The notes below the pieces were generated by a model, which worked only from the letters and a program-made list of their open reading frames with translations, did no database searches and was not told the DNA's origin. From NCBI GenBank assembly GCA_963651445.1, contig CAVJPU010000002.1, forward strand, positions 18,232 to 82,231: a DNA stretch of 64,000 bases, read 5' to 3'. Positions within the stretch are counted from its first letter, which is position 1. Each line of letters opens with the position of its first letter. The stretch comes from a bacterium (GTDB lineage: Bacteria; Bacillota_I; Bacilli_A; RFN20; CAG-826). This document shows, one piece after another, positions 11,121 through 48,844 of this stretch. The translations under genes and the position numbers were made by a program.

Positions 11121-12293
11121 TTAAATTCCAAAAAGATCTGCTAATGATGCCCGTTTTTCAAATTGCAGACCATTTGCATCACACATACCTGACAGTGGCT
11201 TCTTAAATGCCTTTTCAAACATTAAAGGAATATCGACATGTTGTAAAACACTAGCTCGAATTTCTTTTGGTAATTCCGTGCCAGATTGCCAAGCAATCAT
11301 TTTATCACCAAAGATATTGCCGGCTTTTAATGGAAGAACCATAACTTTGTCACCTTCAGATATATCCGGCATATTTTCGAATGATTTGACCGCTCGACGA
11401 TATGTTAAAACACCTCGGACATGTGATGGGCATTTTAATCCAGGGAATCCGTTATCGTCGTATTTTGCAATATTATTTGCAGTTTTAACGCCTGCAATAA
11501 CTTTGTAATCAAGCTCTCTGAATTCTTGCTCAAACTTCTTATAATATTTTTGAAGTGGAGCTTCACCTTCTTGTAACATGATACGAATAGATTCATACAA
11601 TGCATCTTGGACTGCTTTAGGTGTAGAAGAAGACTGTGTTTCGATACCCATGATTTTTAGATGCGGTTCGGCATAACGTGTGCCTTCCATATCGTACACA
11701 TTAAGTGCATATCGTTTCTTAGCTTTCCAGAATCCGCCAATACCATTAGAACCTAGAGGTGGACAAGCAATTGCTTCTCTATCCATGAACATTAATTGTT
11801 CATAACTGTTTAGATATTCGGCTAATTCTTTAAAACCCTCCATAATTACCGGTTCGATCTTCTTAGAACCCACGGCATCCAAGAAGTCTACGAGTTTTTC
11901 TGTACTGTTAAAGCGATCAATGCCAACTTTGTCAATAAGCGGAGATAATTCAATATATAACGAATCCGTATCGCCATAAATGACGTATGGATGATCGGAC
12001 GTTCCACACATATTATCTAGATATGCATTGATTTTACGTTCGGTCCATTGCAGTACCAATTGGCCGAACATTGTAATCGCTTCAGCATTTCTAAGATCGT
12101 AAAAACGAAAATAAATTGTACCTAGACATCCATATAATGAGTTAATAAGAAGTTTTCGGTTAATCTGATTCGTGTCGCCTAATACGATACAATCGTCCGA
12201 TTGAGCTAAAAGCAAAGTCAATTCATCTTTACTTAGTGTCTTTAGATATTCAATATCATCTTCACTAAGGTCTTCAAAAAAATTCAACTGCAT
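11121..12293 (-). CDS. 43: DNA polymerase (PolB family) C-terminal subunit: fingers tip, palm motif C and thumb (gp43B)
   Basis: Motif B KLLINSLYGCLG, motif C YGDTDS and a T4-like C-terminus. It starts with its own ATG 2.8 kb downstream of 43A. Confidence 0.9.
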   Translation of the reverse strand: MQLNFFEDLSEDDIEYLKTLSKDELTLLLAQSDDCIVLGDTNQINRKLLINSLYGCLGTIYFRFYDLRNAEAITMFGQLVLQWTERKINAYLDNMCGTSDHPYVIYGDTDSLYIELSPLIDKVGIDRFNSTEKLVDFLDAVGSKKIEPVIMEGFKELAEYLNSYEQLMFMDREAIACPPLGSNGIGGFWKAKKRYALNVYDMEGTRYAEPHLKIMGIETQSSSTPKAVQDALYESIRIMLQEGEAPLQKYYKKFEQEFRELDYKVIAGVKTANNIAKYDDNGFPGLKCPSHVRGVLTYRRAVKSFENMPDISEGDKVMVLPLKAGNIFGDKMIAWQSGTELPKEIRASVLQHVDIPLMFEKAFKKPLSGMCDANGLQFEKRASLADLFGI

Positions 12294-12314
12294 AATTTCT
12301 CCAAGTATTAATTA

Positions 12315-12346
12315 GATACCTTTAATTATAATATATTAAAGGTATC
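12315..12346 (-). promoter_or_regulatory. 12-bp perfect hairpin about 20 nt upstream of the 43B start
   Basis: GATACCTTTAAT - TATAATAT - ATTAAAGGTATC. It lies between the stop of ORF 12356..12748 and the GGAGAA Shine-Dalgarno of 43B. Confidence 0.45.
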
Positions 12347-12355
12347 GCAATAGAA

Positions 12356-12748
12356 TTATTTTGTTAAATCTACTTTAACGTTAAGATATCCGTATCGGAT
12401 ATGTTCAATTTGATCCATGGCACCCATGTCTTTGACGATTTCTAACAAAAGTGCTAAACGAAGGCGAGTTTCATAAATTTCATCTTCATAATCTGCTCGG
12501 CTGAATCGCTGGCAATATTCGTTATACGTCAAATCAAATACTTCTTTATCTAACTTAGTGTTTAACACATCTATATATTTTTTATCCAACATAAGTTTAT
12601 CTCTAACTACTTCTATGCCACTAGTATATTTGTCAACCGGTGATTGACAAACTTTGGGTTGTGTTTGGGCCATTGTAAATTCTAACGGCTCTTTTGGAGA
12701 ATAAATTCCTTCTAGCCATTGTTCGGCTAACGATTTAGATTTGCTCAT
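12356..12748 (-). CDS. hypothetical protein (polymerase-split cargo)
   Basis: ATG at 12748 (MSKSKSLAEQW) forms an ATGA overlap with the upstream stop. Confidence 0.55.
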   Translation of the reverse strand: MSKSKSLAEQWLEGIYSPKEPLEFTMAQTQPKVCQSPVDKYTSGIEVVRDKLMLDKKYIDVLNTKLDKEVFDLTYNEYCQRFSRADYEDEIYETRLRLALLLEIVKDMGAMDQIEHIRYGYLNVKVDLTK

Positions 12749-13233
12749 TTGAACCACCATGGTTGATTCCTATTTTTCCATTCTGCTAAATTACGTTTTT
12801 CGTTTATATAAAGATTCCTATACGAGCTAATAACACCCAAATCGGATTTAGACTTATCGACAGGTTGACCAGGAAGAACAGCTACAAAAGTAGTCCTAGT
12901 GCCAGTGCCTACAGGAATTTTGTCCAATAAGTCTATAAATAATGGGATTAATCGAGCTCCAGCATGAACTTTACCGTAACGATATGTGTATTCTGAGAGT
13001 AATGCAATGTTTAAGTTTAATAAGAATTCGAAGTTTTCACGTGATTCCCGGACCCAAACTGCACTAGGATGATGTACATGGGTCTTTTTGTAAAGACCTG
13101 TAGTATCCAAACCGAACACATGGCAAGCTGTAGAAAGTAACTGATTGTATTCAGTTATCATTTTGACTACGTGCTTGTTACCATGATATCTAGCGCATGT
13201 ATCGATATCAGAATCAAGTAAAAATATATTCAT
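12745..13233 (-). CDS. conserved-looking hypothetical protein (polymerase-split cargo)
   Basis: 162-aa ORF, MNIFLLDSDIDTCARYHGNKHVVKMITEYNQLL..., with its own early-type promoter. Confidence 0.6.
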   Translation of the reverse strand: MNIFLLDSDIDTCARYHGNKHVVKMITEYNQLLSTACHVFGLDTTGLYKKTHVHHPSAVWVRESRENFEFLLNLNIALLSEYTYRYGKVHAGARLIPLFIDLLDKIPVGTGTRTTFVAVLPGQPVDKSKSDLGVISSYRNLYINEKRNLAEWKNRNQPWWFK

Positions 13234-13262
13234 AATAATTCCATCATCATTTTGTAGTTTCT

Positions 13263-13292
13263 ATTATACCATACGTAGAAAATAAAGTAAAC
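13263..13292 (-). promoter_or_regulatory. T4 early-type promoter
   Basis: The minus strand reads GTTTAC TTTATTTTCTACGTATGG TATAAT. Confidence 0.5.
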
Positions 13293-13302
13293 ATCCAAAG
13301 GA

Positions 13303-13536
13303 CTACTTTATTCGTCCATTATAAACATTTTTACCAGCTATAGGAGGATAACTTTCAAATCTTTCGCGTGATTTTGTTCCACACTCTAGACATGTGGTAT
13401 ATCTAATGGAACATTTATATGCATTGCTTTGTGTCACACTGCCATTAACACTTTCTGACCAACGATCCCAATAATGGATAAGTTCTTCGCGCCGGCTGGC
13501 GTGTTTACAAGTAAATAGCCTGAATAATTTAAACAT
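13303..13536 (-). CDS. hypothetical protein with Cys pairs (possible zinc ribbon)
   Basis: 77-aa ORF containing CKH...CLECG. It overlaps the upstream gene end. Confidence 0.5.
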   Translation of the reverse strand: MFKLFRLFTCKHASRREELIHYWDRWSESVNGSVTQSNAYKCSIRYTTCLECGTKSRERFESYPPIAGKNVYNGRIK

Positions 13537-13819
13537 TATTACACCCGGATGCGATGATATCTAGAACATGTTTGAAACATTTATCGTGTATATCTAAATC
13601 ATGACGAAGTCGTTCGATAATAGGAAACGCAATGTTTTGATCAGAAATGCTGACCGGTTCAGGGTCCCAAAACCCACCGAGTGTACATTTAGAAGAAGGT
13701 CCAAACACCTCATTAAACTGACGTTCAATTGCATCAAATAAAATAGTATCCATCGTATTCGCATTAGAGTTAATAGGAGTTGAATCCTGAATGGCTCGTG
13801 TTAAAGAATTTTGTTTCAT
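13529..13819 (-). CDS. hypothetical protein
   Basis: 96-aa ORF with an early-type promoter upstream. Confidence 0.5.
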   Translation of the reverse strand: MKQNSLTRAIQDSTPINSNANTMDTILFDAIERQFNEVFGPSSKCTLGGFWDPEPVSISDQNIAFPIIERLRHDLDIHDKCFKHVLDIIASGCNNV

Positions 13820-13847
13820 AATTTAATACTCATTAGTTGATAAATCT

Positions 13848-13877
13848 ATAATATCAAATAATCAAAAGAAAGTAAAC
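13848..13877 (-). promoter_or_regulatory. T4 early-type promoter
   Basis: The minus strand reads GTTTAC TTTCTTTTGATTATTTGA TATTAT. Confidence 0.45.
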
Positions 13878-13881
13878 AGTT

Positions 13882-13910
13882 AAAAGCACAAATGGAGCCT
13901 AATGGCTCCA
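13882..13910 (-). terminator. intrinsic terminator
   Basis: Stem TGGAGCC/GGCTCCA is followed by TTTGTGCTTTT on the minus strand. Confidence 0.5.
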
Positions 13911-13925
13911 ATGTTAACATTTAGT

Positions 13926-14123
13926 TTAAAACATTCCATCAACAGTTGCAGTGCCTGCTTCAATAGGATTTTTAAACATTACACATCCGCAGATAAAGCC
14001 GCAGATGAATAGTAGTGGAACACATACACCAAGACCTATGATAATACGATATATCAATTCAACACGTTTAGCTAATGTTTCGTGTTCTTCCCAAGCGTGT
14101 TCAATTTGTTTAAAAATGTTCAT
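13926..14123 (-). CDS. small membrane protein
   Basis: 65 aa with one hydrophobic helix (IIGLGVCVPLLFICGFICGCV). Confidence 0.5.
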   Translation of the reverse strand: MNIFKQIEHAWEEHETLAKRVELIYRIIIGLGVCVPLLFICGFICGCVMFKNPIEAGTATVDGMF

Positions 14124-14206
14124 TTTGGTTTACCTTTTGATGAAAAATATTTTTTGAGCAATTCTAACTGCTCATTGGTAAATGGCGAACTAGGATTAAA
14201 ACTCAT
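14120..14206 (-). CDS. 28-aa ORF translationally coupled on both sides
   Basis: Translation MSFNPSSPFTNEQLELLKKYFSSKGKPK, with ATGA overlaps at both ends. Below the track threshold. Confidence 0.25.
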   Translation of the reverse strand: MSFNPSSPFTNEQLELLKKYFSSKGKPK

Positions 14207-14505
14207 AGTCCAATTTCCTGCGCGGCCTGTCTAAATATGGCATTAATATTTAGATCAGCTTGTACCGAAGTTCGCACAGAAGTCATTATTTTTTCCACGT
14301 TATCCAACGTGGAGTGCTTCGCACGAATCGTCTTTTGTACATTATCTTTTACCATAGTAAAAGCACTAAAAAATCCAATATAACGAGGAGCTTTAAATGC
14401 TTCTGCTACATGATCCATCCATTCTACAACGAATTCTGATTCAATTTCGGATATTTTAAAAATACCGTCGTTAATATTATTAACTTGATTACCGTTGTAC
14501 TTCAT
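14203..14505 (-). CDS. hypothetical protein
   Basis: The track start is a GTG inside the repeat hairpins. ATG at 14505 (MKYNGNQ...) with a GGAG Shine-Dalgarno is preferred. Confidence 0.5.
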   Translation of the reverse strand: MKYNGNQVNNINDGIFKISEIESEFVVEWMDHVAEAFKAPRYIGFFSAFTMVKDNVQKTIRAKHSTLDNVEKIMTSVRTSVQADLNINAIFRQAAQEIGL

Positions 14506-14527
14506 ACCAATCTCCGTTAAATTATCA

Positions 14528-14693
14528 AATACAATTAATATCGGGACTGCGTCCCGCACGTCTTCGACGTGACATTTAGAACTTCTACTGTTATAATATC
14601 TAATACATCTAGAACAAACTGTCTAGCCCGTAGATAGATATCTGAAGGGACTAAGGGGTGAACCCATTATATGTATATTACACTAACTTTTTT
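14528..14693 (-). repeat. structured ~165-bp cassette, copy A (putative small RNA or regulatory cassette)
   Basis: Its reverse complement is roughly 80 percent identical by eye to 47824..47986. It has TATAAT at the 5' end and twin GC hairpins CACGTCGAAGACGTG and CGGGACGCAGTCCCG at the 3' end. Confidence 0.7.
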
Positions 14694-14719
14694 GAAAGCA
14701 ATAGAATGCTTTCAAAAAA
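14688..14719. other. 13-bp A/T-flanked hairpin
   Basis: TTTTTTGAAAGCA - ATAGAA - TGCTTTCAAAAAA. Confidence 0.5.
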
Positions 14720-14752
14720 TTGATCAAAAAATAGACGTTCAAATGCAGCAAT

Positions 14753-14768
14753 GGGCCCAAAAGGGCCC
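14753..14768. other. GGGCCC-AAAA-GGGCCC hairpin after ORF 14781..15059
   Basis: Read directly. The same GGGCCC hairpin type serves as the terminator at 58441. Confidence 0.45.
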
Positions 14769-14780
14769 AAATTAAAGCAA

Positions 14781-15059
14781 TTAGAACATCCGTACTGCCG
14801 ATGTTAACGGTAAAATCTCATTTGATATTTTAGTTAATGTCATCGAATTAATTGGCTCGAATACGTACTTGTGAATGATATTTTCGATTCCAATAAAGAT
14901 AACACGATTTGACTCTCGGCCATAAGTACTAATATCAGCATCAATTTTAACAGTACCGGATTTAAATGTAATGGTTACAGCACCGTGAACAATGCGTGCA
15001 TCTGCAGAACGAGTGGCCCGTGAATCGATAATAGGTGAAAATATATTTAAGTTTGACAT
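14781..15059 (-). CDS. hypothetical protein (first gene of the polymerase-split cargo)
   Basis: 92-aa ORF with an early-type promoter immediately upstream. Confidence 0.5.
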   Translation of the reverse strand: MSNLNIFSPIIDSRATRSADARIVHGAVTITFKSGTVKIDADISTYGRESNRVIFIGIENIIHKYVFEPINSMTLTKISNEILPLTSAVRMF

Positions 15060-15086
15060 ATGTATCTTCCATTAGATTATGAGGTT

Positions 15087-15116
15087 ATTATATCAATAAC
15101 CTCTTATAAAGTAAAC
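15087..15116 (-). promoter_or_regulatory. T4 early-type promoter directly after the 43A stop
   Basis: The minus strand reads GTTTAC TTTATAAGAGGTTATTGA TATAAT. Confidence 0.5.
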
Positions 15117-15119
15117 AAA

Positions 15120-16634
15120 TTATTTAGATTCTAGAATCTTTTTAATAACTTCCGAATTACGTTTAGCTGCCATCATCTTGGCCTTCCATTCTTTACGTTG
15201 GAAGAATACTTTTGCAATTTCTTTAGGAATAATTCCTTGCTTGTCTTTAGAATACATCATTCCACTAGGAGAACAACTAAATTCATCAGAAATCTTTGGA
15301 GCTGTTTTCGTAATATAATCCATCAATGGTGCCGGCACAGATTGTCCTGCAATAGTTTCTGGGCTAATATTAACCTGTCGAATGATCGATGGGTATAGAG
15401 ATGTTACGTCGAATGATAAAACATATTTGTATGCACCAGGTTTAGGTACTTTGACATACGCACCAACGTACGGGGTTTTAACGTGAGATTTAACTTCAGG
15501 CATAACAAGATTATCAGCCTTTAATGAGTTAAAAATAATGGCATCCCAAGTTTTTACAGGACTCATAACCGATTGAATATTCATCTTAGCGTAATACGCC
15601 ATAGAAATAGATAGATTAATAAATCCACGTTTCTTATCAATCATTTGCACACAGTGTACATCGATAATGTTATACGAAATATACCGTTGATGATTCAACC
15701 CACGAAGTTTATTAATTGGGCCATCATATTCCAATTTGTTCATCTTAACTTCGTATTCCGCGATATAATCTAACTTATATGTTGGTTGCGTTGTAAATGA
15801 GAACTTTTTATATAAGTCCAAATAATCTAAAATTTGGATTCCAGAAATGGTAAAGATTTCTTTATCACCATAAATGTTTTGAATAACTTTAGATGTGATT
15901 CGATTAAAAGGGCTTATTTGATTAGCAAATGATGGACCTAACGTATTTTTGATTCGATTAATAATGTACGGAATATCGAATCCTTCTACGTTCCATCCGG
16001 TGAAAATAACCGGCGGATGCTCTTTCCAGAATCTAACGTATTCCACTAACATTTCTTTTTCAGTTTCGAATGAAAAATACACGACTTTGTCTAAAATTTC
16101 TTGATCTACTTCATCGCCACCCTGTTCTTTTGGAAGTGCAGCTAATTTCTTGTCCCATTTCGTTACACGCCCATAAGCAGAATTCAACAAATCAAAAACA
16201 AAATACTTATCTTCGATAGAATCGTAATGCGTGATTGCATCGATTTCATACTTAGCAAATTGTGGATCTGGGAATTCGGCAGCTGTCACCTCAATGTCAC
16301 AGTTTGCAACACGGATTGCATCACGAGAATATGTGATTTCTTTTTCTTTATACGTGTCGGCAATGTACGCTAATCTAAAGTCATCTTGCCCAAGAACTTC
16401 TGTAATACCAGAAGATTTTTGGATCCATTCATTTGCTTCTTTAATTGTACGGAAACGCTTTGGCATACATGGCTTGCCGTAAATGTCAGAATATTTTGTA
16501 TCAAAACCAGGTTGAACATGTGTAAACATTGTCGGTTGATACACAACTTCACGCTGTTTTTCTACGCCATCTTCAATATAACGTTCTTTAATCAAGTCAC
16601 CGTATTTTTCTACAACCAGATAAAACTTACTCAT
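15120..16634 (-). CDS. 43: DNA polymerase (PolB family) N-terminal subunit: N-domain, 3'-5' exonuclease, palm motif A and start of fingers (gp43A)
   Basis: Contains Exo I CDIEV, Exo II TGWNVEGFDIPY and motif A SFDVTSLYPS. It ends ...FFQRKEWKAKMMAAKRNSEVIKKILESK, just before the position of motif B. Confidence 0.9.
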   Translation of the reverse strand: MSKFYLVVEKYGDLIKERYIEDGVEKQREVVYQPTMFTHVQPGFDTKYSDIYGKPCMPKRFRTIKEANEWIQKSSGITEVLGQDDFRLAYIADTYKEKEITYSRDAIRVANCDIEVTAAEFPDPQFAKYEIDAITHYDSIEDKYFVFDLLNSAYGRVTKWDKKLAALPKEQGGDEVDQEILDKVVYFSFETEKEMLVEYVRFWKEHPPVIFTGWNVEGFDIPYIINRIKNTLGPSFANQISPFNRITSKVIQNIYGDKEIFTISGIQILDYLDLYKKFSFTTQPTYKLDYIAEYEVKMNKLEYDGPINKLRGLNHQRYISYNIIDVHCVQMIDKKRGFINLSISMAYYAKMNIQSVMSPVKTWDAIIFNSLKADNLVMPEVKSHVKTPYVGAYVKVPKPGAYKYVLSFDVTSLYPSIIRQVNISPETIAGQSVPAPLMDYITKTAPKISDEFSCSPSGMMYSKDKQGIIPKEIAKVFFQRKEWKAKMMAAKRNSEVIKKILESK

Positions 16635-40680: not shown

Positions 40681-40754
40681 TGGCAGGCCCTGAGTGAATC
40701 GAACACTCGTTGACGGGGTTGGAGCCCGTAGTAATACCTCTATACGAAAGACCT
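40681..40754 (-). tRNA. tRNA-Trp (anticodon CCA)
   Basis: Hand-folded. Anticodon arm ACGGG-CTCCAAC-CCCGT, T arm GAGTG-TTCGATT-CACTC, encoded CCA. Confidence 0.8.
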
Positions 40755-40760
40755 ATAATT

Positions 40761-40834
40761 TGGTAGCGAAATCCAGACTCGAACTGGAACCTTTGGGTTA
40801 TGAGCCCTATGTGCAGCCTTTACACCATATCGCG
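40761..40834 (-). tRNA. tRNA-Met or tRNA-Ile2 (anticodon CAU), with a 1:72 mismatch
   Basis: Hand-folded. Loop CTCATAA, T arm TCCAG-TTCGAGT-CTGGA, encoded CCA. The acceptor stem has C1-U72 and U6-U67 mismatches. Confidence 0.6.
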
Positions 40835-40841
40835 ATAAAAT

Positions 40842-40916
40842 TGGAAGTCACAAAAGGAATCGAACCTTTACCATCAGAGTCAAATTCTGATGTGCTAACC
40901 GTTACACCATGCGACA
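40842..40916 (-). tRNA. tRNA-Gln (anticodon UUG)
   Basis: Hand-folded. Anticodon arm TCAGA-ATTTGAC-TCTGA, T arm AAAGG-TTCGATT-CCTTT, encoded CCA, U1-U72 mismatch. Confidence 0.75.
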
Positions 40917-41020
40917 ATTGTTAGTTTTTGATCTGTTGAACTATAACAACAGCTTGGCGGTAAGTTCACCAAGTCTTAAGAAGTGTATTTCTACACTTAG
41001 ACCTTTTTATTGTTTTAAAA

Positions 41021-41097
41021 TGGTCTCCCATCCTGGATTTGAACCAGGGACATCTTCTTTCCAAAAGAAGTAGGCTACCAGACTGCCCTAATGAGAG
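41021..41097 (-). tRNA. tRNA-Pro (anticodon UGG)
   Basis: Hand-folded. Anticodon arm CTTCT-TTTGGAA-AGAAG, T arm CCTGG-TTCAAAT-CCAGG, encoded CCA. Confidence 0.85.
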
Positions 41098-41105
41098 ATA
41101 AAAGA

Positions 41106-41181
41106 TGGTACAACTAGATGGATTTGAACCATCGACACATGGATTATCGGTCCATTGCTCTACCAGCTGAGCTATAGTTGT
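41106..41181 (-). tRNA. tRNA-Ile (anticodon GAU)
   Basis: Hand-folded. Anticodon arm ATGGA-CCGATAA-TCCAT (C rather than U at position 33), T arm GATGG-TTCAAAT-CCATC, encoded CCA. Confidence 0.75.
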
Positions 41182-41182
41182 A

Positions 41183-41255
41183 TGGAGGGTTGACTCGATA
41201 TATTTAACACGAGACATAGGACTCATATAATGTCTAGAACATTAATGCTCAACCC
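41183..41255 (-). ncRNA. tRNA-sized RNA with a perfect 7-bp acceptor stem and encoded CCA but non-canonical inner arms
   Basis: Minus strand: GGGTTGA ... TCAACCC T CCA, 73 nt, filling the gap between tRNA-Ser(UGA) and tRNA-Ile. Inner hairpin AGACAT-N12-ATGTCT. No TTCRANY T-loop. Confidence 0.4.
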
Positions 41256-41260
41256 GTAGA

Positions 41261-41351
41261 TGGCGGAAAGTGAGAGGATCGAACTCTCAAGGCTTTTACA
41301 CTCGACTGATTTCAAGTCAGTTGCCGTCGCCTGCCGTCGGCTTGACTTTCC
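41261..41351 (-). tRNA. tRNA-Ser (anticodon UGA), type II
   Basis: Hand-folded. Acceptor GGAAAGT/ACTTTCC, anticodon arm ACTGA-CTTGAAA-TCAGT, T arm GAGAG-TTCGATC-CTCTC, encoded CCA. Confidence 0.8.
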
Positions 41352-41389
41352 AAAATATTTCGTTCACCTTTTAGGTAGTGAGACACCTT

Positions 41390-41866
41390 TTAAACAATTA
41401 TATAAACAACATCTTCATTTGTAAAAGCTTCAAACTGTTTAATTTTATTTTTAATGAGTTTAAGAATTTCTGGTTTTTCTAAACAGAAAGGCCCGCCAAC
41501 GTCAATAAAAACACGTTTTGTATCTTTTAATATACCACGGAGATGATTCACATTATCTGCTTTAAGTAATGAATATCTAAAATCAAGACTTTTGTTAAAC
41601 ACAAACAATCTGTCTTTGAAACTATCAACAGTGTGATAATTATACCCAACATAAATGTCTGTTTTGTGATCAAACATTGCTGCAAGACTAGTTGTTTTAC
41701 CTTGTTGTCTAGGAGTTAAGCACCATATTTGTCTAAACTCGTAAAGCGATTGTTCTCTACTAAAATGTTTAGGTATGGGTTTAATCTGGGATTCAACAAA
41801 GGTCTCTAGTCTATTTTTATATGTTTGAATATCACCGTTTAAATCTTTAATTTTATATTTATTCAT
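41390..41866 (-). CDS. small P-loop protein embedded in the tRNA island
   Basis: 158 aa. TPRQQGKTTSLAAMF resembles a terminase-type (SRQLGKTT) Walker A. Confidence 0.45.
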   Translation of the reverse strand: MNKYKIKDLNGDIQTYKNRLETFVESQIKPIPKHFSREQSLYEFRQIWCLTPRQQGKTTSLAAMFDHKTDIYVGYNYHTVDSFKDRLFVFNKSLDFRYSLLKADNVNHLRGILKDTKRVFIDVGGPFCLEKPEILKLIKNKIKQFEAFTNEDVVYIIV

Positions 41867-41968
41867 AACTATACCTATAAGCGATTATGTTTTAGAATAG
41901 ATGTTAGGATAGCTCCAAAACGTATTAAAGTTTCGTAAGGCACCCGAATTGAATCAATTGCTAACATT

Positions 41969-42044
41969 TGGCTCCTCAGACATGGCTCGAACATGTGACA
42001 AACGGATTAACAGTCCGCTACTCTACCAACTGAGTTACTGAGGA
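41969..42044 (-). tRNA. tRNA-Asn (anticodon GUU)
   Basis: Hand-folded. Acceptor TCCTCAG/CTGAGGA, loop CTGTTAA, T arm ACATG-TTCGAGC-CATGT, encoded CCA. Confidence 0.85.
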
Positions 42045-42186
42045 ATAAAATCGGATGAACATACCAGCAAATGGCTTAGCACTATGACGGGTCGCCTAAT
42101 ATGTTCTTAAACCTGTTGTCAACGCAGGAAAGCTTAGTGGCATACACGATATAAATTGACAAATGTATGCAAGATGTTCTTTTTAT

Positions 42187-42262
42187 TGGTTGGACCACAC
42201 AGACTTGAACTGAGACTAACGACATCACAAATCGCGGTGCTAACCATTACACTATGGTCCAC
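42187..42262 (-). tRNA. tRNA-His (anticodon GUG), with an encoded extra 5' G (G-1)
   Basis: Hand-folded. Acceptor TGGACCA/TGGTCCA, loop TTGTGAT, encoded CCA, one T-stem mismatch. Confidence 0.75.
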
Positions 42263-42269
42263 ATTAAAT

Positions 42270-42345
42270 TGGTACTCTTAGAGAGGATCGAACTCTCGTT
42301 TTCAACGTGAAAGGCTGACGTCCTGTCCATCTAGACGATAAGAGC
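42270..42345 (-). tRNA. tRNA-Glu (anticodon UUC)
   Basis: Hand-folded. Anticodon arm TCAGC-CTTTCAC-GTTGA, 4-nt variable region, T arm GAGAG-TTCGATC-CTCTC, encoded CCA. Confidence 0.8.
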
Positions 42346-42405
42346 ATTGTTACTTTAAATATTTGTCGATATAATCAACATTTGCTGGATTACGTCTAAT
42401 CCATT

Positions 42406-42582
42406 TCATCTGTACTTTCCTGGTTGTTCACATAATTCGTTGCGAACGATATCTTTTTTGATACGACGCTCAACACGGTGTGTCATATTTTTAATGATTG
42501 GACCAACTCCAAGCTTAGAACAAGGACGTTTAGACCAAAACTCTTGACCAGTTTGTTTAGAACCTTTAATTGTACGACTCAT
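42406..42582 (-). CDS. 58-aa basic protein embedded in the tRNA island
   Basis: ATG at 42582 (MSRTIKGSKQTGQEFW...) with a GAGGA Shine-Dalgarno. The track's longer start runs toward the tRNA-Tyr gene. Confidence 0.45.
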   Translation of the reverse strand: MSRTIKGSKQTGQEFWSKRPCSKLGVGPIIKNMTHRVERRIKKDIVRNELCEQPGKYR

Positions 42583-42681
42583 AATAATATCCTCAAAATT
42601 TGGTGTACAAAGGGAGCGCTTGCATCTCCAAATCAACGACTTTTCCGCTGCTTTACTATTTAAGCTATCAATGCACATATG

Positions 42682-42767
42682 TGGTGGAGTTGCTAGGATT
42701 CGAACCTAGATAGCCGAAGCGTCGGATTTACAGTCCGATGGGTTTGACCAACAACCCAACCAACTCC
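42682..42767 (-). tRNA. tRNA-Tyr (anticodon GUA), type II
   Basis: Hand-folded. Acceptor GGAGTTG/CAACTCC, anticodon arm TCGGA-CTGTAAA-TCCGA, long variable arm, encoded CCA. Confidence 0.85.
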
Positions 42768-42797
42768 TTAATTTGTTTAATTCTTATTATTTATAAT

Positions 42798-42873
42798 TGG
42801 TCCGGCGACCCAGACTCGAACTGGGAATAAAAGCTTAGAAGGCTAAGGTTATGTCCAGTTTAACTATCGCCAG
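42798..42873 (-). tRNA. tRNA-Arg (anticodon UCU)
   Basis: Hand-folded. Loop CTTCTAA, T arm CCCAG-TTCGAGT-CTGGG, encoded CCA. The anticodon stem has only 3 secure pairs. Confidence 0.6.
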
Positions 42874-42878
42874 AAATA

Positions 42879-42954
<76 letters not shown>

Positions 42955-43038
42955 TTAAATCACTACCGTTAACACTTGTCAGGAACATAACGAGTTAAAA
43001 CCTTTTGTGACAAGATTTAAAAAATCTAAACTATAAAA

Positions 43039-43094
43039 CTTAATCTTTGCTAAATAAAAACTTTGATCTTTGACCTATTAGCTTTAATCTTTAG
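43039..43094. repeat. three spaced copies of CTT(T/-)RATCTTTR (minus strand AAAGATYAAAG)
   Basis: Copies at 43039-43049, 43061-43072 and 43082-43094, with centre-to-centre spacing of about 21-23 bp. They lie in the gap upstream of the tRNA-Thr sub-cluster. Confidence 0.5.
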
Positions 43095-43211
43095 CCAGTC
43101 GCCGTGCCACTGCACAGCAATAAGTTCTATATAAAGAGTGGTATTTCAGGTAATACCGGACCCTCTGTAGTTTTTGATAACGGTAATTCTAATTTTATTT
43201 ATAACATGAAA

Positions 43212-43778
43212 TTATCCAATCGTGATGATTGGATTGTTTTCTGTTAGGATGGCATCAAATTCTAAATCGAAAAAGTCAATTTTCTCTTTTAACACATCAA
43301 TTTGTTGTTGAATATCAAAAATTGATGGGCGTTCCCGTTTTTCGAGCAAAGTCTTAAGCTCATCATCAGAAGAAGCTTTAGAGAATTTGGCGTCAAATTC
43401 ACGTTCTAATGTACTAAATGACGAACGAGATGCGCTCAGGTCCTTAACGAGGCGTTGATGTAAGGCACGAAGATTCGGTAGAATATGCGTACGATATGTC
43501 AATGCATCGTTAATAGACATTTCTTGATCACCAATTTTAATTTTTGTCTCAAAATTGGCACGATTAATTTGACAACGGAGTTTAAATTCGGTGTCCAAAC
43601 GATCATTAATCGATTGTAATGCGGTATGTGATTTCTCGGAGAATTCTTTGGTTTTTAAACCAGTGCTGATTTCAACACCATTTCGAATAACACCGCTAAA
43701 CACAGAATCACGAAGTGCTTCAATGAATAGATTTTTAGAACGTTTGATTGTTACTAGTGCTCGTGCGATAGTAGTCAT
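43212..43778 (-). CDS. coiled-coil protein embedded in the tRNA island (DIP1984-family-like pattern, tentative)
   Basis: 188 aa with N-terminal ARALVTIKRSK and a central INRANFETKI...INDALTYR pattern. Recognition by eye only. Confidence 0.35.
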   Translation of the reverse strand: MTTIARALVTIKRSKNLFIEALRDSVFSGVIRNGVEISTGLKTKEFSEKSHTALQSINDRLDTEFKLRCQINRANFETKIKIGDQEMSINDALTYRTHILPNLRALHQRLVKDLSASRSSFSTLEREFDAKFSKASSDDELKTLLEKRERPSIFDIQQQIDVLKEKIDFFDLEFDAILTENNPIITIG

Positions 43779-43810
43779 ATATTTTTCCTATTTTGAACTT
43801 TGCAATGTCT

Positions 43811-43887
43811 TGGTGGGCCTCCAGGAATTCGAATCCCGTATCTTCCCGTTATGAGCGGGGTGCTTATACCACTTAAGCTTGAGGCCC
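43811..43887 (-). tRNA. tRNA-Met (anticodon CAU), second copy
   Basis: Hand-folded. Acceptor GGGCCTC/GAGGCCC, loop CTCATAA, T arm CGGGA-TTCGAAT-TCCTG, encoded CCA. Confidence 0.75.
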
Positions 43888-43896
43888 AGTTGATGG

Positions 43897-44352
43897 TTAT
43901 TTAGAATTAATAAGCTCTATTAATTTTGCCACGATAATATGCGGTTTAGCATTAACAGTTTTTATCAATTTTCCGATCAATGGATTGATAACCTTTTGTA
44001 AATTTGACAACTTGTATTGTTCTATTTCTTTAGGATGTTGTTCTATAATATTATTTATACACTCAATCTCGGCATCCGAAAACATGTATGAATTGAATTC
44101 CGATTTGAGGTTATCCTCTTTTGCTTGCTTGACAGCAGCATCATTACATTTTAATATTTCATTTTTATGATTGGCCCAATCATTTCTACATTCTAGAAAT
44201 TTTTTGTACACTTCAGTTTTGTTCAACTCATCAAGAGCCGTCCATCTTAACATAGTTTTAATTGAACCATTATCATATTCCGCTTCATAAATTGTTCCGG
44301 TTCCTAATTCACCTTTACAATCATTATCGACAACTTTAAATATTAAACTCAT
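43897..44352 (-). CDS. protein with a C-terminal GatB/YqeY-like domain, embedded in the tRNA island
   Basis: The C-terminus IECINNIIEQHPKEIEQYKLSNLQKVINPLIGKLIKTVNAKPHIIVAKLIELINSK follows the GatB_YqeY pattern ...V..VI..NP..VE.YK.GK.KAL..LVGQVMK...GKA.P..V..LL...L. Confidence 0.45.
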   Translation of the reverse strand: MSLIFKVVDNDCKGELGTGTIYEAEYDNGSIKTMLRWTALDELNKTEVYKKFLECRNDWANHKNEILKCNDAAVKQAKEDNLKSEFNSYMFSDAEIECINNIIEQHPKEIEQYKLSNLQKVINPLIGKLIKTVNAKPHIIVAKLIELINSK

Positions 44353-44359
44353 AATTTTC

Positions 44360-44602
44360 TCATTTCAATTTAATTTTAGCTTCGAAAACAAATCTATAAT
44401 TATCATCACACAAAACTTTAGCTTGCTCATATGTCGTCGCCATTCTCAAAACAGCTCCGGTGTATGAAACTATAGCGAAAACACAACCTGCAGATGATTC
44501 ACTGGCGTGGTCTTCGACTTTAAACCTTAATTTTTTGTATGTGTATGATTCGTCATAAGTACACAAAAATTTAGCTAATGATTTAGAAAATGTAAATCGC
44601 AT
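44360..44602 (-). CDS. hypothetical protein
   Basis: 80-aa ORF. Confidence 0.45.
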   Translation of the reverse strand: MRFTFSKSLAKFLCTYDESYTYKKLRFKVEDHASESSAGCVFAIVSYTGAVLRMATTYEQAKVLCDDNYRFVFEAKIKLK

Positions 44603-44703
44603 TACTTTTCCTTCACCATTAAAAATTCCATAAATGCTTCTATTTGAAGTTTTATCTATGCACTTTTTGCAGATCTAATGTTTCATTTTAAGTTCCTTGG
44701 CTA

Positions 44704-44821
44704 TTAAAAATATTAGAGGAATCGAACCTCTTAGTTCCGTGCGGAATTACGTGAACCATTCTTTCAATGGAATCGAACCATATACTACCCAGAGCAGAAC
44801 CGTCTCACCAGAGTCAAAAAT
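44704..44821 (-). ncRNA. two tandem degenerate tRNA-like fragments, each with a canonical T arm
   Basis: The minus strand contains ATGG-TTCGATT-CCAT and AGAGG-TTCGATT-CCTCT, but I could not build acceptor or anticodon arms, and no CCA is encoded. Confidence 0.3.
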
Positions 44822-44896
44822 TGGTGTGCATAATCGGATTCGAACCGATACAAAAAGATTTTAGAGGTCTCTGCTCTACCGTTGAGCTATATGCAC
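44822..44896 (-). tRNA. tRNA with anticodon CUA (amber-reading, suppressor-type); amino-acid identity undetermined
   Basis: Hand-folded, 75 nt. Acceptor GTGCATA/TATGCAC, D arm GCTC-AACGGTA-GAGC, anticodon stem GAGAC/ATCTT (a C-A mismatch at 31:39), loop CTCTAAA, T arm ATCGG-TTCGAAT-CCGAT, encoded CCA. Confidence 0.55.
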
Positions 44897-44910
44897 TTAA
44901 GATGACTTAA

Positions 44911-45093
44911 TTATTCAAACTTGGATTTCAAGAGCTCGTATAATGCTCGAGATTCTTTAGTGTCAAATGATGTTTCTTCTGGCTCATATTGCTCATCGTC
45001 ATACACTGTCTTGACTACAAGAATATCTCCATCAAATTCAACATCGAAACTACAATTTCCAGATACAGATAAATCTCGTTCTAGGATAGCCAT
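44911..45093 (-). CDS. 60-aa acidic protein
   Basis: Strong AAGGAG Shine-Dalgarno, immediately downstream of the inverted-repeat-flanked tRNA-like element. Confidence 0.5.
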   Translation of the reverse strand: MAILERDLSVSGNCSFDVEFDGDILVVKTVYDDEQYEPEETSFDTKESRALYELLKSKFE

Positions 45094-45109
45094 TATCCAA
45101 CTCCTTTAA

Positions 45110-45238
45110 GTAACTTTTTAATAAGAACGAAGAGACTGGATTCGAACCAATATCAACCGGGTTTACAGGCCAGTTATGCTCCAGTATCAGGCGCAAGCTT
45201 AACCATTTAGCTACACTCCGAACTTATTAAAAAGTTAC
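45110..45238 (-). ncRNA. tRNA-like core (97 nt) clamped by a perfect 16-bp inverted repeat
   Basis: GTAACTTTTTAATAAG (45110-45125) is the exact reverse complement of CTTATTAAAAAGTTAC (45223-45238). The core has D-arm-like AGCT-AAATGGTTA-AGCT, T arm ATTGG-TTCGAAT-CCAGT and a CTGTAAA loop, but no standard cloverleaf and no CCA. Confidence 0.45.
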
Positions 45239-45823: not shown

Positions 45824-46285
45824 TTATTTTTTAGGTGACCAATCTAAGTCTAGATCTTCGACATATTCTGATGCCATTTCTAATACTTTAGATTTGTCTA
45901 AAGCCGTATCTAAAATTTTAAGAGCACCGATATCATATGATAATGTAATATGCGGTTTATACTCTGGAAAATCGTAAGTAGCACCTAAAATCATTGCATA
46001 TTCATGACGCATGTTCAAATAACTTGAATCTAAAATTAGAACCAATGCACGTTTGTTATTGTGTTCAAAAACACCTAATGCAGCCGGTGTTCCAATAGGC
46101 ATTTTTTCAGTTATAGGCATATAATTGATTTTGACGCGAGAAAAGCATATTGTAGAATGCAATTTATCACGTGGAACAGGATCGAAGAGTTGCAATTTGT
46201 TTTGCAACTCCTCTAAAAAATCTAATGTGGTATCACTAAATTTTACTGCTGCGTACGTGCCTTTACCTACTTCATTAAACTTCAT
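45824..46285 (-). CDS. 57B: 2H-phosphoesterase-superfamily protein (T4 57B position)
   Basis: Two H-x-T/S motifs (LHSTICFS and PHITLSY). 153 aa, adjacent to 57A. Confidence 0.6.
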   Translation of the reverse strand: MKFNEVGKGTYAAVKFSDTTLDFLEELQNKLQLFDPVPRDKLHSTICFSRVKINYMPITEKMPIGTPAALGVFEHNNKRALVLILDSSYLNMRHEYAMILGATYDFPEYKPHITLSYDIGALKILDTALDKSKVLEMASEYVEDLDLDWSPKK

Positions 46286-47191: not shown

Positions 47192-47758
47192 TTAAACGGT
47201 GTGAGTTTTTCCTCTATCAATTGTCTCGTTAATAGAAGGACGTGATATAATTATACTACCATTTTTCTCAACAGCAAAATATCTGTATTGGAAAGTTACT
47301 GTCACAAATGGTGCAGGATCGCTTTCTTCAGTAAAATTATATTCTAAATCAGATATTTGGCTTGGCCAAGCTCCATAATAATGAAATGATTGAAGGATTT
47401 TTGACTTATCATTACTCAATACATGAAGTGTAATAAATTCCGGCAATGTGCCTTCAGCCCAACCATTATTTTCGTGAGTTATATAATTGTTTAGAGATAG
47501 CATCCACTGATATACTTGAGTCCAAGCATCCAAATTTTCGTCGATTAATACCCTAACGACTAATGGGTCAAATTCAAATGTAGAACCCGGAATATTAGCG
47601 CGCCCAAGGCCTTTAGTGCCTAAAGGTGAATTTGTGACTGGGATTGATATTCCAGGTATAAGTGCTGATTGAACGTTTAGCTTAAACGCAGATGTTATAT
47701 CTGCATCGGGAATGTCCAGCACAAAGTTTGTAATATTTGTTTGGTTAAATAATGCCAT
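47192..47758 (-). CDS. 3: tail completion / sheath stabiliser (gp3)
   Basis: FNQTNITNFVLDIP...IPGISIPVT...GLGRANIPGSTFEFDPLVVR parallels T4 gp3. Confidence 0.75.
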   Translation of the reverse strand: MALFNQTNITNFVLDIPDADITSAFKLNVQSALIPGISIPVTNSPLGTKGLGRANIPGSTFEFDPLVVRVLIDENLDAWTQVYQWMLSLNNYITHENNGWAEGTLPEFITLHVLSNDKSKILQSFHYYGAWPSQISDLEYNFTEESDPAPFVTVTFQYRYFAVEKNGSIIISRPSINETIDRGKTHTV

Positions 47759-47823
47759 TTGGCTGTCCTTGGTTAAAAAATGATCGATTGGAACATAAAA
47801 TTAATAGCAATCTAGTGCTGTTT

Positions 47824-47986
47824 AAAAAAGTAGTGTAATATACATATAATGGGTTCACCCCTTAGTTCCATTCAATACCTAAGCTAAGGGATAGAAGAGG
47901 TTTTAGATGTATTAGATAATATAATATTAAAAGTTCTAAATTCACGTCGAAGACGTGCGGGACGGAGTCCCGATATTAATTGTATT
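47824..47986 (+). repeat. structured ~165-bp cassette, copy B (inverted relative to copy A)
   Basis: It shares AGTGTAATATACATATAATGGGTTCACCCCTTAGT, TAGATGTATTAGATA, AGTTCTAAAT, hairpins CACGTCGAAGACGTG and CGGGACGGAGTCCCG, and GATATTAATTGTATT with the reverse complement of 14528..14693. Confidence 0.7.
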
Positions 47987-48004
47987 AGAAGTATAAAATA
48001 AGAT

Positions 48005-48844
48005 TTATCGTTTCCACACTTTATTAGCACCAAATCTTTTACCTTTGCTTTGGAATTGTTGAAGTGGCATCATAACAACATTAGCCCAATCACTTGGTTT
48101 AATTTCAACAAATTTACCTTTAACGTGAGCTGGCAAATATGCTTTAATCATTTGGTCCGCACCACTAAATCCTTTAACTTTTGACCAATCAATTTTTAAT
48201 TTAGTGCTATTTGAAATTTCTGTAGTACTAGAATATTTTTTTAATAATTCTTCTAAAAATTGTTGACGTGCTTTAGGTGGAATATAATGAAGATTTAATC
48301 CATGGAATAGTGTCGTTTTTGACACTTTTGACTGTACAACATCTAAAAATATAATTAGTGGATATTTATCCCAAAACGGTAAAGTATCTTTATGTTTTGC
48401 GTCATATATAAAAGCATAAATTCTGCCTGGACTAGGTCTAACAACTGTGTGTCCTCGGACACCTTTAGCCAATGTATCTTTAAACCATTTTTCGGATTTA
48501 TTGTTTACTGCCGCACCTTCATTTCTGATTTTTTCTCTCATTGACTGTCTAAAGCTATTAATAATAACAGCTTCTTTTTCTCGTCTAGATAGTTTTTCTG
48601 CTCCACCTTTAGATTTTGCAATTTTAGCATCATACGCCAATTGAATTTTTGATTTATAACGAGAAATACTTTTAGTAAATGTCCCGTAATTTATATTTTT
48701 GTCTAAAGCAAACTGTTTAGCTGTACTGCCATTTGCTTTAGCTTCTAACCATTCAATGCCAATTGATACCCATGTAGCTTCTTGTCTAGATATAGGTGCT
48801 TTAGAAGCCAAATCGGCCGCTTCATCTATTTGAAAAATACTCAT
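48005..48844 (-). CDS. 2: DNA end-protector protein (gp2)
   Basis: 279 aa between genes 4 and 3, as in T4. Basic. Confidence 0.7.

Follow-up and report, generated by a model that had tools for sequence, protein, structure and literature searches.

The window analysed here is a stretch of 64,000 nucleotides (nt) from contig CAVJPU010000002.1 of GenBank assembly GCA_963651445.1 (positions 18,232 to 82,231, forward strand), and our subject is a cassette of about 165 bp that occurs in it twice. Copy A lies on the minus strand, inside the split between the two parts of the DNA polymerase gene, and copy B on the plus strand, between genes 3 and 2. The pair belongs to an old, dispersed family of middle-promoter cassettes of T4-like phages, which includes the T4 replication origin oriF and is related to oriG; members of the family have a promoter-like architecture, recur at fixed positions and evolve in concert.

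The source of the window is a T4-like phage, new and of the Acinetobacter type, with 76% identity to Twarogvirinae proteins in gp43A and 66–73% amino-acid identity in gp3. No relative at the nucleotide level was found in the phage collection searched, and when queries of 401 nt and 171 nt were compared by blastn with 50,697 phage records the sole match was 37 nt in Acj9. Exact-pattern scans of IMG/VR gave no match, and a metagenome scan anchored on gp3 gave no close relative, yielding instead two loci (L054 and L055) with two tandem units. The only other public trace of the phage is Logan contig SRR13434628_168017 (2,251 bp), which ends at ∼47818, at the edge of copy B. This break was dropped as proof of the repeat, its position being off from the k-mer prediction.

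The repeat pair

The reverse complement of 14528–14693 aligns with 47824–47986 at 88.1% identity over 160 columns (E 2e-29, blastn). The first-pass annotation had described this pair from the sequence, and the shared elements that it listed, an identical block of 35–36 nt, an AT-rich block, two perfect GC hairpins and a tail, are all borne out by the alignment. Identical blocks of 21–22 nt gave 0 matches in 100 shuffles, and both blastn-short and a hidden Markov model of the family find exactly two copies in the window. The similarity reaches ∼27 nt further upstream than first noted, to ∼14720 and ∼47797, and the added sequence includes a 7-bp stem-loop with a MotA-like box as its 3′ arm. This stem reads GAAAGCA..TGCTTTC in A and AATAGCA..TGCTGTT in B, with one compensatory pair and one U·G pair. 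The differences between the copies are clustered, with 15/32 falling inside 32 columns (P ∼5e-4).

Copy A and its neighbours (all on the minus strand):
14781..15059: conserved open reading frame (ORF) of 92 amino acids following gene 43A, upstream of copy A; 36–39% identity to same-position ORFs in AM101, Acj9 and Acj61
14694..14713: upstream stem-loop GAAAGCA-TTCTAT-TGCTTTC, a self-complementarity found by blastn
14700..14694: MotA-like box TGCTTTC, the 3′ arm of the stem-loop
14666..14680: −10 region, TAATAT at 14680..14675 (13 nt past the box) and TATAAT at 14671..14666, then GGG
14616..14665: putative initial transcribed leader, the first ∼17 nt matching copy B and the centre diverged
14572..14615: A+T-rich block with TAGAT repeats (TCTAGATGTATTAGAT...)
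14542..14571: twin GC mini-hairpins, CACGTC-GAA-GACGTG at 14571..14557 and CGGGAC-GCA-GTCCCG at 14556..14542
14506..14541: tail AUAUUAAUUGUAUU, then a GGAG Shine-Dalgarno sequence at 14515..14512; the ATG of ORF 14203–14505 is at 14505..14503
14203..14505: ORFan that copy A, directly upstream, would feed first

Copy B and its neighbours:
47192..47758 (minus): gene 3 (tail completion), antisense to copy B; 66–73% amino-acid identity to gp3 of Acinetobacter T4-like phages
47803..47822 (plus): upstream stem-loop AATAGCA-ATCTAG-TGCTGTT, with the MotA-like box TGCTGTT at 47816–47822
47836..47850 (plus): −10 region, TAATAT at 47836–47841 (13 nt past the box) and TATAAT at 47845–47850, then GGG
47851..47899 (plus): putative leader, with hairpin CCCTTAG 47859–47865 / CTAAGGG 47884–47890, then GATAGAAGAGG
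47900..47942 (plus): A+T-rich block with TAGAT repeats, 16% G+C
47943..47986 (plus): twin GC mini-hairpins (47943–47957 and 47958–47972) and tail
48005..48844 (minus): gene 2 (DNA end protector), antisense to copy B; synteny with Acj9, KARL-1, ZZ1 and T4

Judged by the parts common to the copies, the cassette is a stem-loop whose 3′ arm carries a Mot-like box TGCTnTn, a −10 element (TAATAT and/or TATAAT, then GG), a conserved leader of ∼45 nt and an A+T block with TAGAT repeats; the two adjacent GC mini-hairpins are found in only some copies of the family.

Middle-promoter-like architecture

That the TATAAT end of the cassette is a promoter, as the first-pass annotation had supposed, is supported by comparative data, in which a MotA-type box is conserved together with the −10 element. 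The boxes stand in the contexts attGCTTTCa (TGCTTTC) in A and agTGCTGTTt in B; both have TGCT followed by a T-rich run, and both depart from TGCTTtA, the T4 consensus being (a/t)(a/t)(a/t)TGCTT(t/c)A centred near −30. In A and B alike, a sigma-70-type −10 hexamer, TAATAT, starts 13 nt past the box and so conforms to TAnnnT at 12 ± 1 bp, and a second hexamer, TATAAT, lies 9 nt beyond it. Variant boxes are used elsewhere in the window, where the P43-like and P1-like promoters have TGCTATT and TGCTGTT respectively (the P1-like promoter is at 47250–47276), and a double −10 like that of the window copies occurs at three loci of Acj9. The orthologous gene 3/2 sites of KARL-1 and T4 carry the consensus box TGCTTTA, and the T4 site (taaTGCTTTA, 13 nt, TGG, TATAAT) is an exact fit to the published MotA-box consensus.

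Acinetobacter T4-like phages encode MotA and AsiA (PMC5795418). The annotation of AM101 includes both, and by T4 gene order both genes would lie outside the window. We consider it very probable, on this comparative evidence, that copies A and B are promoter cassettes of the family; they are presumably active as promoters and dependent on MotA.

Early-type promoters (GTTTAC..TATAAT) are also seen in relatives, in AM101 (L065 9117–9183), Acj61 (L066 11267–11324) and ZZ1 (L071 6730–6790), where the −10 is often bracketed by an inverted repeat, as in GATAGGAC-TATGTTATAATG-GTCCTATC.

Copy B in the gene 3/gene 2 spacer

Copy B occupies the plus strand of the 246-nt gene 3/gene 2 spacer and, since genes 3 and 2 are both on the minus strand, points against both late genes; its hairpins and tail end 18 nt before the gene 2 stop codon (48005–48007, minus strand). 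The same arrangement extends well beyond this phage. An antisense TGCTnnn box followed after 12–14 nt by TATAATGG is present in the gene 3/2 spacer of T4, of JS98-type and CC31-type phages and of other T-even relatives, and the same antisense promoter is found in Acj9, Acj61, Ac42, KARL-1, ZZ1, AbTZA1, AB1I1M-1 and metagenomic phages, that is, in all Acinetobacter T4-like phages examined. In an alignment of eight spacer sequences (A3) TATAATGG is invariant; phage 133 has a TATAATA variant in its spacer. Past the promoter, spacers of the Acinetobacter type continue with a C-rich/G-rich hairpin region, a GATAGA-type motif and an A+T-rich stretch with (T)AGATGTAT. The late promoter TATAAATA that might serve gene 3 was not found on either strand of the spacer, and the literature searched yielded no antisense middle promoter between T4 genes 3 and 2 and no anti-late RNA. 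We conclude from the comparison of spacers that copy B is a resident element of this site.

The leader of copy B has a hairpin loop carrying TTCCATTCAATA (47866–47877), a motif common to copy B and to the T4 and JS98-type gene 3/2 sites; T4 oriG has TTCCTGATTCAACTAA, and copy A has lost the motif. The centre of copy B as a whole resembles gene 3/2 sites of the T4 type. The stem around this loop, which had been proposed for both copies, is perfect in B (CCCTTAG/CTAAGGG) but has an internal U·C mismatch in A and is not used by the minimum-energy fold of A. The A+T block of copy B is among the top 0.1% least stable 45-mers in the window.

The statement that the cassette contains no ORF longer than 14 codons has to be qualified, as copy B is overlapped by a mechanical TTG ORF of 49 codons (47884–48033, minus strand) that is unlikely to be a gene. 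Nor was the gene 3/2 spacer accepted as protein-coding, the frames not being conserved and all three being closed in the window. A short reading frame, AUG UAU UAG, lies at 47907–47915 in copy B, 6 nt past AAGAGG (47895–47915, plus strand), a textbook minigene layout.

The spacers of relatives show two further features. At JS98-type gene 3/2 sites an inverted repeat brackets the −10 (CCCAGCCAGT..ACTGGCTGGG) and shows compensatory changes from phage to phage. Tandem copies of the promoter-leader unit occupy the gene 3/2 spacer in three separate lineages, Acj9 (L001 2436–2787), phage 133 (L012) and the metagenomic loci L054/L055, and in Acj9 the unit is duplicated in tandem also in the gp25|uvsY.-2 spacer (L092 3877–4122).

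Copy A in the polymerase split

The DNA polymerase of the window phage is encoded in two parts, 43A at 15120–16634 and 43B at 11121–12293 (minus strand; region 11121–16634); some seven small ORFs separate the two parts. Of these ORFs, just the 92-residue one beside 43A is conserved in relatives, the others varying by phage. Copy A is co-oriented with its neighbours and sits at the border between this conserved ORF and the non-homologous ORFans; the first of these, ORF 14203–14505, has no Pfam match and no homology to the same-position ORFs of relatives.

AM101, Maestro and AB1I1M-1 have a cassette at the same position in the polymerase split, sense to the genes, with a stem-loop over the Mot box, twin hairpins and then a Shine-Dalgarno sequence and ATG of a non-homologous ORF; in Acj9 and Acj61 the split holds a related promoter with a short leader. 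The suggestion that copy A serves as promoter and leader for ORF 14203–14505 is strengthened by this shared arrangement. An inverted repeat AAAGCAC..GTGCTTT over the Mot box, matching the arrangement in copy A, is present in AM101 copies 1 and 2 (listed below) and in Maestro. The leader centre of copy A likewise resembles the polymerase-split copies of other phages (..GGGCTAGACAG, compared with GGACTAGAATAG in Maestro). Its A+T block is among the top 1.6% least stable 45-mers in the window.

Copy A also contains a sigma-70-like promoter on the opposite strand to the cassette, GTGACA-17 nt-TGTTATAAT at 14569–14597 (plus strand), with 11/12 matches plus TG, which faces the Mot promoter. As a functional candidate this site was rejected; its equivalent in copy B is weak (GTGAAT..TATATT) and it is not conserved in the Lazarus-type copies.

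A dispersed family evolving in concert

Copies A and B are members of a larger family. A 60-nt promoter-plus-leader block of AM101 occurs at 5–6 places per genome in 58 records, and genomes of the Lazarus and Hadassah types have 5–6 copies each. The five copies of AM101 are as follows.

Copy 1: 16.2 kb, plus strand, beside srd, antisense
Copy 2: 47.1 kb, minus strand, polymerase split, sense
Copy 3: 80.9 kb, plus strand, gene 3/2 spacer, antisense
Copy 4: 119.3 kb, minus strand, gp25|uvsY.-2 spacer (the position of T4 PuvsY/oriF), sense
Copy 5: 150.2 kb, minus strand, rnh|gene 34 spacer, sense

The leader and A+T module, with the motif TTAGATG(T/A)AT..GAT, are common to all five, and the polymerase-split and gene 3/2 copies also have an identical stretch of 59 nt.

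Copies within a genome are more alike than copies at the same site in other genomes, which points to gene conversion. Window copies A and B are 82–83% identical to each other, and their identity to copies in other phages does not exceed 61%. Which leader variant a copy carries depends on the genome and not on the locus, CTCTAATTATATCT being the Lazarus-type form and CTCTAAATTTA the Hadassah-type form, whereas the 3′ modules follow the locus. Within a lineage the leaders of PuvsY and the gene 3/2 site start alike, with GGTTTTGAGTTC in CC31-type phages and TCTAAGTCC in T4. These patterns of identity indicate that A and B are two old loci homogenised by gene conversion.

Twin hairpins and RNA structure

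The two adjacent perfect GC hairpins reported at the 3′ end, CACGTC-GAA-GACGTG and CGGGAC-GCA/GGA-GTCCCG, are indeed present in both copies. Adjacent perfect pairs of this kind occur nowhere else in the 64 kb, with a mean of 0.23 per shuffle. Hairpin pairs of unrelated sequence stand at the same place in the gene 3/2 spacers of KARL-1, AbTZA1, AB1I1M-1, Acj61, Acj9 and L054. A simple terminator scan flags the second hairpin of both window copies, with tail AUAUUAAUUG; these tails are moderately U-rich. The first hairpin of L054 is followed by TTTTT, a clean U5 tail, and the AM101 and Maestro polymerase-split copies have poor U tails after their hairpins. In AM101 the twin hairpins are confined to copies 1–3; their presence in antisense copies and absence from the sense copies at uvsY.-2 and rnh fits a role in limiting transcription, and we infer that they terminate or limit it. 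Copy B is oriented against its neighbours, and its expected product is a short transcript bounded by the hairpins, as first proposed.

A conserved structured RNA finds less support. Copy B folds better than its shuffles (z = −3.7) and copy A no better (z = −1.7). An Rfam search, suggested as a check, gave no family at the gathering score, and only tRNAs and noise up to E = 10. No consensus fold was obtained across relatives: RNAalifold gave no structure for the leaders because the sequences do not align, and single-sequence folds differ by lineage. Only the twin hairpins recur among relatives, with unrelated sequences.

Relationship to the T4 origins oriF and oriG

Minimal oriF (ori(uvsY), promoter PuvsY) and oriG (ori(34), promoter P34i) span ∼100 bp and comprise a MotA promoter and an A+T-rich DNA unwinding element, and an R-loop formed by the transcript primes DNA synthesis; the two origins share little homology, and R-loop formation at oriF needs no specific sequence (Kreuzer and Brister, PMC3016281). 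The cassettes are laid out in the same manner, as a MotA-type promoter and an A+T unwinding-type block within ∼100–165 bp. The promoter and A+T element lie within ∼100 bp of each other, the A+T block coming ∼45–50 nt past the expected start. Kinship with a proven origin is found at the level of the family, which has members at the PuvsY position in AM101 and Acj9; the window loci themselves are not known origin sites. In Acj9 the spacer equivalent to oriF holds two tandem units with the double −10 of the window type, near-identical to the unit in its gene 3/2 spacer.

In T4 itself, the signature TATAATG[GA]nTC[CT]nAG (TGGTATAATG..TCTAAG.CC) occurs four times, at oriF (PuvsY), at PnrdC.7 and at positions 11,885 and 75,988. 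The last two, both promoter-like sites with a consensus MotA box, are not among the 58 mapped T4 middle promoters (2010 list). One lies antisense in the srd/modA spacer (NC_000866 ∼11,853–11,900, plus strand; L076), with its −10 at 11,885, and the other antisense in the gene 3/2 spacer (∼75,957–76,001, plus strand; L050 2957–3001), with its −10 at 75,988. Both share TGGTATAATG..TCTAAGTCC with PuvsY, and the 11,885 site is the positional counterpart of AM101 copy 1. When the T4 gene 3/2 leader was compared with the 58 mapped promoters, the best match was P34i (oriG) with a score of 27, reached by none of 2000 shuffles (0/2000) and by 0.3% of random 65-mers; next came PuvsY (oriF), tied with PnrdB. 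The cassette, which had not been recognised as any T4 RNA, is not foreign to T4, where the gene 3/2 and srd/modA spacers, PuvsY (oriF) and PnrdC.7 all have this promoter-leader type.

The layout shared with oriF and oriG, together with a family member at the oriF position, suggests an origin-type job for those copies that point at no gene. On this comparative analysis we regard an origin-type function of the cassettes as plausible, with the balance tipped slightly against it. The broader proposal is more doubtful and is offered tentatively, namely that the cassettes are R-loop-type origins of this phage group, forming a conserved, concertedly evolving family of origin-promoters that would be represented in T4 by oriF, oriG and the two antisense sites.

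Several observations weigh against the proposed reading of the cassettes, the origin role included. Leader motifs such as TTCCATTCAATA are conserved even though R-loops need no specific sequence, so that an origin role leaves this conservation unexplained. T4 arrays show only five origins and there is no middle promoter near oriE (PMC3016281); the T4 gene 3/2 site lies 3.3 kb from oriE. Copy 5 of AM101 borders gene 34, and T4 oriG is 2.2 kb inside that gene. PnrdC.7 carries the signature and is not known as an origin, and in its alignment with the T4 gene 3/2 leader PuvsY scores 20, barely more than other promoters. In the window copies themselves the boxes TGCTTTC and TGCTGTT are non-consensus, the two hexamers make the −10 ambiguous, the A+T block of copy A is less extreme than that of copy B, and the tails past the hairpins are poor in U. 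Furthermore, sense copies in the polymerase split keep the hairpins between the promoter and the ribosome-binding site of the next gene, which is a poor fit to a simple terminator.

Alternative explanations

The pair was first said to look like a self-contained unit of promoter, small RNA and terminator, or else a mobile regulatory cassette. The second of these descriptions comes close to the class that fits best, that of the PmSL and PeSL elements, composite motifs in which T4-like phages combine a promoter with a stem-loop (Arbiol et al. 2010, PMC2839356; Comeau et al. 2014, PMC4122927). The first is not supported as a novel, stand-alone pair of genes, given that the family has 5–6 copies per genome in relatives and that some copies run into genes without hairpins. 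A small RNA gene would give a discrete RNA of ∼125 nt ending at the twin hairpins, acting as a regulator, by way of its conserved loop or centre, in trans or in cis, antisense to the late mRNA of genes 4-2-3. No ORF lies ahead of copy B, of copies 1 and 3 of AM101 or of the T4 sites at 11,885 and 75,988, all of which would give a non-coding product; the fold of copy B is better than that of its shuffles, the loop motif TTCCATTCAATA has been conserved between T4 and the window phage, and a terminator-like tail follows the hairpins. Set against this are the lack of any Rfam match even at E = 10, the poorer fold of copy A, where the loop motif is gone and the stem is partly lost, and the lack of a consensus structure across relatives; the sense copies of AM101, Acj9, Acj61 and T4, moreover, enter a gene directly without hairpins, and sites in the window complementary to the loop are not enriched (17 found, 17.5 expected). 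We judge small RNA genes to be an improbable explanation overall, though a conceivable one for the antisense copies. Still less can be said for a minigene or leader peptide, in which the transcript would serve the tiny ORF AUG UAU UAG. The ATG is invariant in alignment A3, in copy B it lies 6 nt past AAGAGG, and the predicted peptides of ZZ1, AB1I1M-1 and Acj9 unit 2 begin with MYL(I/L). However, copy A has no Shine-Dalgarno sequence for it, and the ATG is missing from Ac42, L025, the Maestro polymerase-split copy and the T-even gene 3/2 sites; for these reasons a minigene is rejected as a general explanation. ORF length varies between 2 and 30 codons, no frame is conserved, and we consider the idea very improbable.

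A stronger case can be made for a plain regulatory and recombination cassette of the PmSL/PeSL kind, in which the stem-loops are terminators or insulators and the copies stay alike as portable homology for T4-type recombination, marking the borders of variable clusters, the antisense copies being tolerated by-products with transcripts blocked by the twin hairpins. The stem-loop over the Mot box, followed by the −10, matches the PmSLs of nt-1 and the PeSLs of RB49, phi1, PST and T4; copy A stands exactly at the border between conserved ORF and ORFans, and the copy number, the tandem duplications in Acj9, phage 133 and L054 and the concerted evolution fit as well. What speaks against it is the antisense gene 3/2 promoter, which keeps its place, orientation and intact consensus across two subfamilies and so argues for selection, not tolerance. 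The antisense site adjacent to srd is likewise kept in T4 and AM101, the gene 3/2 spacer belongs to the conserved late-gene core and not to a hyperplastic region, and published PeSLs reach a Shine-Dalgarno sequence and ATG within ∼100 bp, whereas the cassettes add 110–130 nt of conserved sequence. We think this account unlikely as a full explanation. Recent transposition or chance duplication, by which copy A would be a young, functionless copy of B dropped into the polymerase split by a mobile element, might be suggested by 88% identical, inverted copies and by the homing endonuclease that lies in the split of some relatives. It is contradicted by the synteny of both loci in relatives: the split holds a copy at this position in AM101, Maestro and AB1I1M-1 and a related promoter in Acj9 and Acj61. 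In addition, the centre of A is like that of other polymerase-split copies and the centre of B like that of T4-type gene 3/2 sites, and there are no target-site duplications or terminal repeats. Of the explanations considered, we give this one the least credence, and almost none.

Proposed mechanism and implications

The reading that we favour overall, at about an even chance, is of a PmSL-like middle-promoter cassette that has the layout of oriF and oriG, its transcript being limited by the hairpins. Under this scheme, host RNA polymerase modified by MotA and AsiA would start near 47857 in copy B and near 14659 in copy A, or ∼9 nt upstream if TAATAT serves as the −10 (near 47848 and 14668, respectively). 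It would transcribe the leader and the A+T block and be stopped or slowed at the twin hairpins after ∼115–130 nt. At copies that point at no gene, copy B included, transcription may open the A+T block and leave an R-loop or primer, and co-oriented copies, such as copy A, may in addition be the ordinary promoter and leader of the next ORF, ORF 14203–14505 in the case of A. Gene conversion would keep A and B alike.

If this is correct, a single signature, consisting of a Mot box, TG(G)TATAATG, a lineage-specific leader and an A+T block with TAGAT repeats, marks origin-type middle promoters in T4-like phages, and origins could be predicted from sequence in many of them, including Acinetobacter phages used in therapy, for which nothing is known of replication initiation. 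The two unlisted T4 sites, at 11,885 and 75,988, would offer a direct test and could account for disputed or minor T4 origins; the number of origins in T4 has been debated for decades, seven having been proposed and five being seen on arrays. Long-term homogenisation, by gene conversion, of promoter cassettes that are inverted relative to each other and separated by more than 30 kb would also bear on module shuffling of the T4 type. For annotation, the warning is that such pairs should not be taken for novel small RNA genes or transposons.

Other features of the window

A cluster of 14 tRNA genes lies at 40681–45220 (minus strand). It includes a tRNA-Pyl called by ARAGORN, with anticodon CUA (amber-suppressor type), at 44822–44896, and a 94-nt tRNA-Tyr(AUA) call at 45127–45220 that barely passes the Rfam threshold. 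A homologue of gene 57B at 45824–46285 (minus strand) strongly matches the anti-CBASS nuclease Acb1 (Pfam PF23474, E 9e-48).

Comparison with known systems

The bar minigenes of phage lambda are two-codon genes and are comparable in this respect with AUG UAU UAG of the window. T4 rnaC and rnaD lie in the tRNA cluster and are cut from a tRNA precursor. According to the T4 annotation they are phage non-coding RNAs of 120–140 nt in two related copies, as a cassette RNA might be, but the cassette has its own promoter and shows no sequence similarity to them.

The PeSL and PmSL elements offer a further parallel. As in these, a stem-loop lies upstream of or over the promoter, with a Mot box and −10 in the PmSL manner, near-identical copies are repeated within a genome, two in the window and 5–6 in relatives, with gene-conversion-like patterns among them, and copy A stands at the edge of an ORFan cluster, followed by a Shine-Dalgarno sequence and ATG. 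The stem is 7 bp and perfect in A, and 7 bp with one U·G pair in B. The cassettes differ in carrying an extra leader, A+T block and twin hairpins. They do not end at an ATG within ∼100 bp, copy A reaching its Shine-Dalgarno sequence and ATG after ∼150 nt and copy B having no downstream gene. PeSL and PmSL elements lie mostly between ORFans of hyperplastic regions, and of the window copies only copy A is at an ORFan border; copy B and other family members are in conserved regions, and some copies oppose their neighbours in the late-gene core.

The MotA/AsiA middle promoters of T4 resemble the cassettes in having a box at about −30, separated by 12–13 nt from a −10 of the sigma-70 type. The cassettes are distinguished by variant boxes, two overlapping −10 candidates and a long, conserved, non-coding leader.

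With oriF and oriG, compared with the cassettes by sequence, the shared features are a MotA-box promoter followed by an A+T-rich block within ∼100 bp. What sets the window copies apart is a stem-loop that covers the Mot box, a pair of GC hairpins past the A+T block, and a location in the gene 3/2 spacer and the polymerase split, not at known origins. Like copy B, oriG fires against a late gene, and the T4 gene 3/2 site has sequence in common with both origins, sharing TGGTATAATG..TCTAAGTCC with PuvsY and TTCC..ATTCAA..AACAACAGAA with the oriG transcript.

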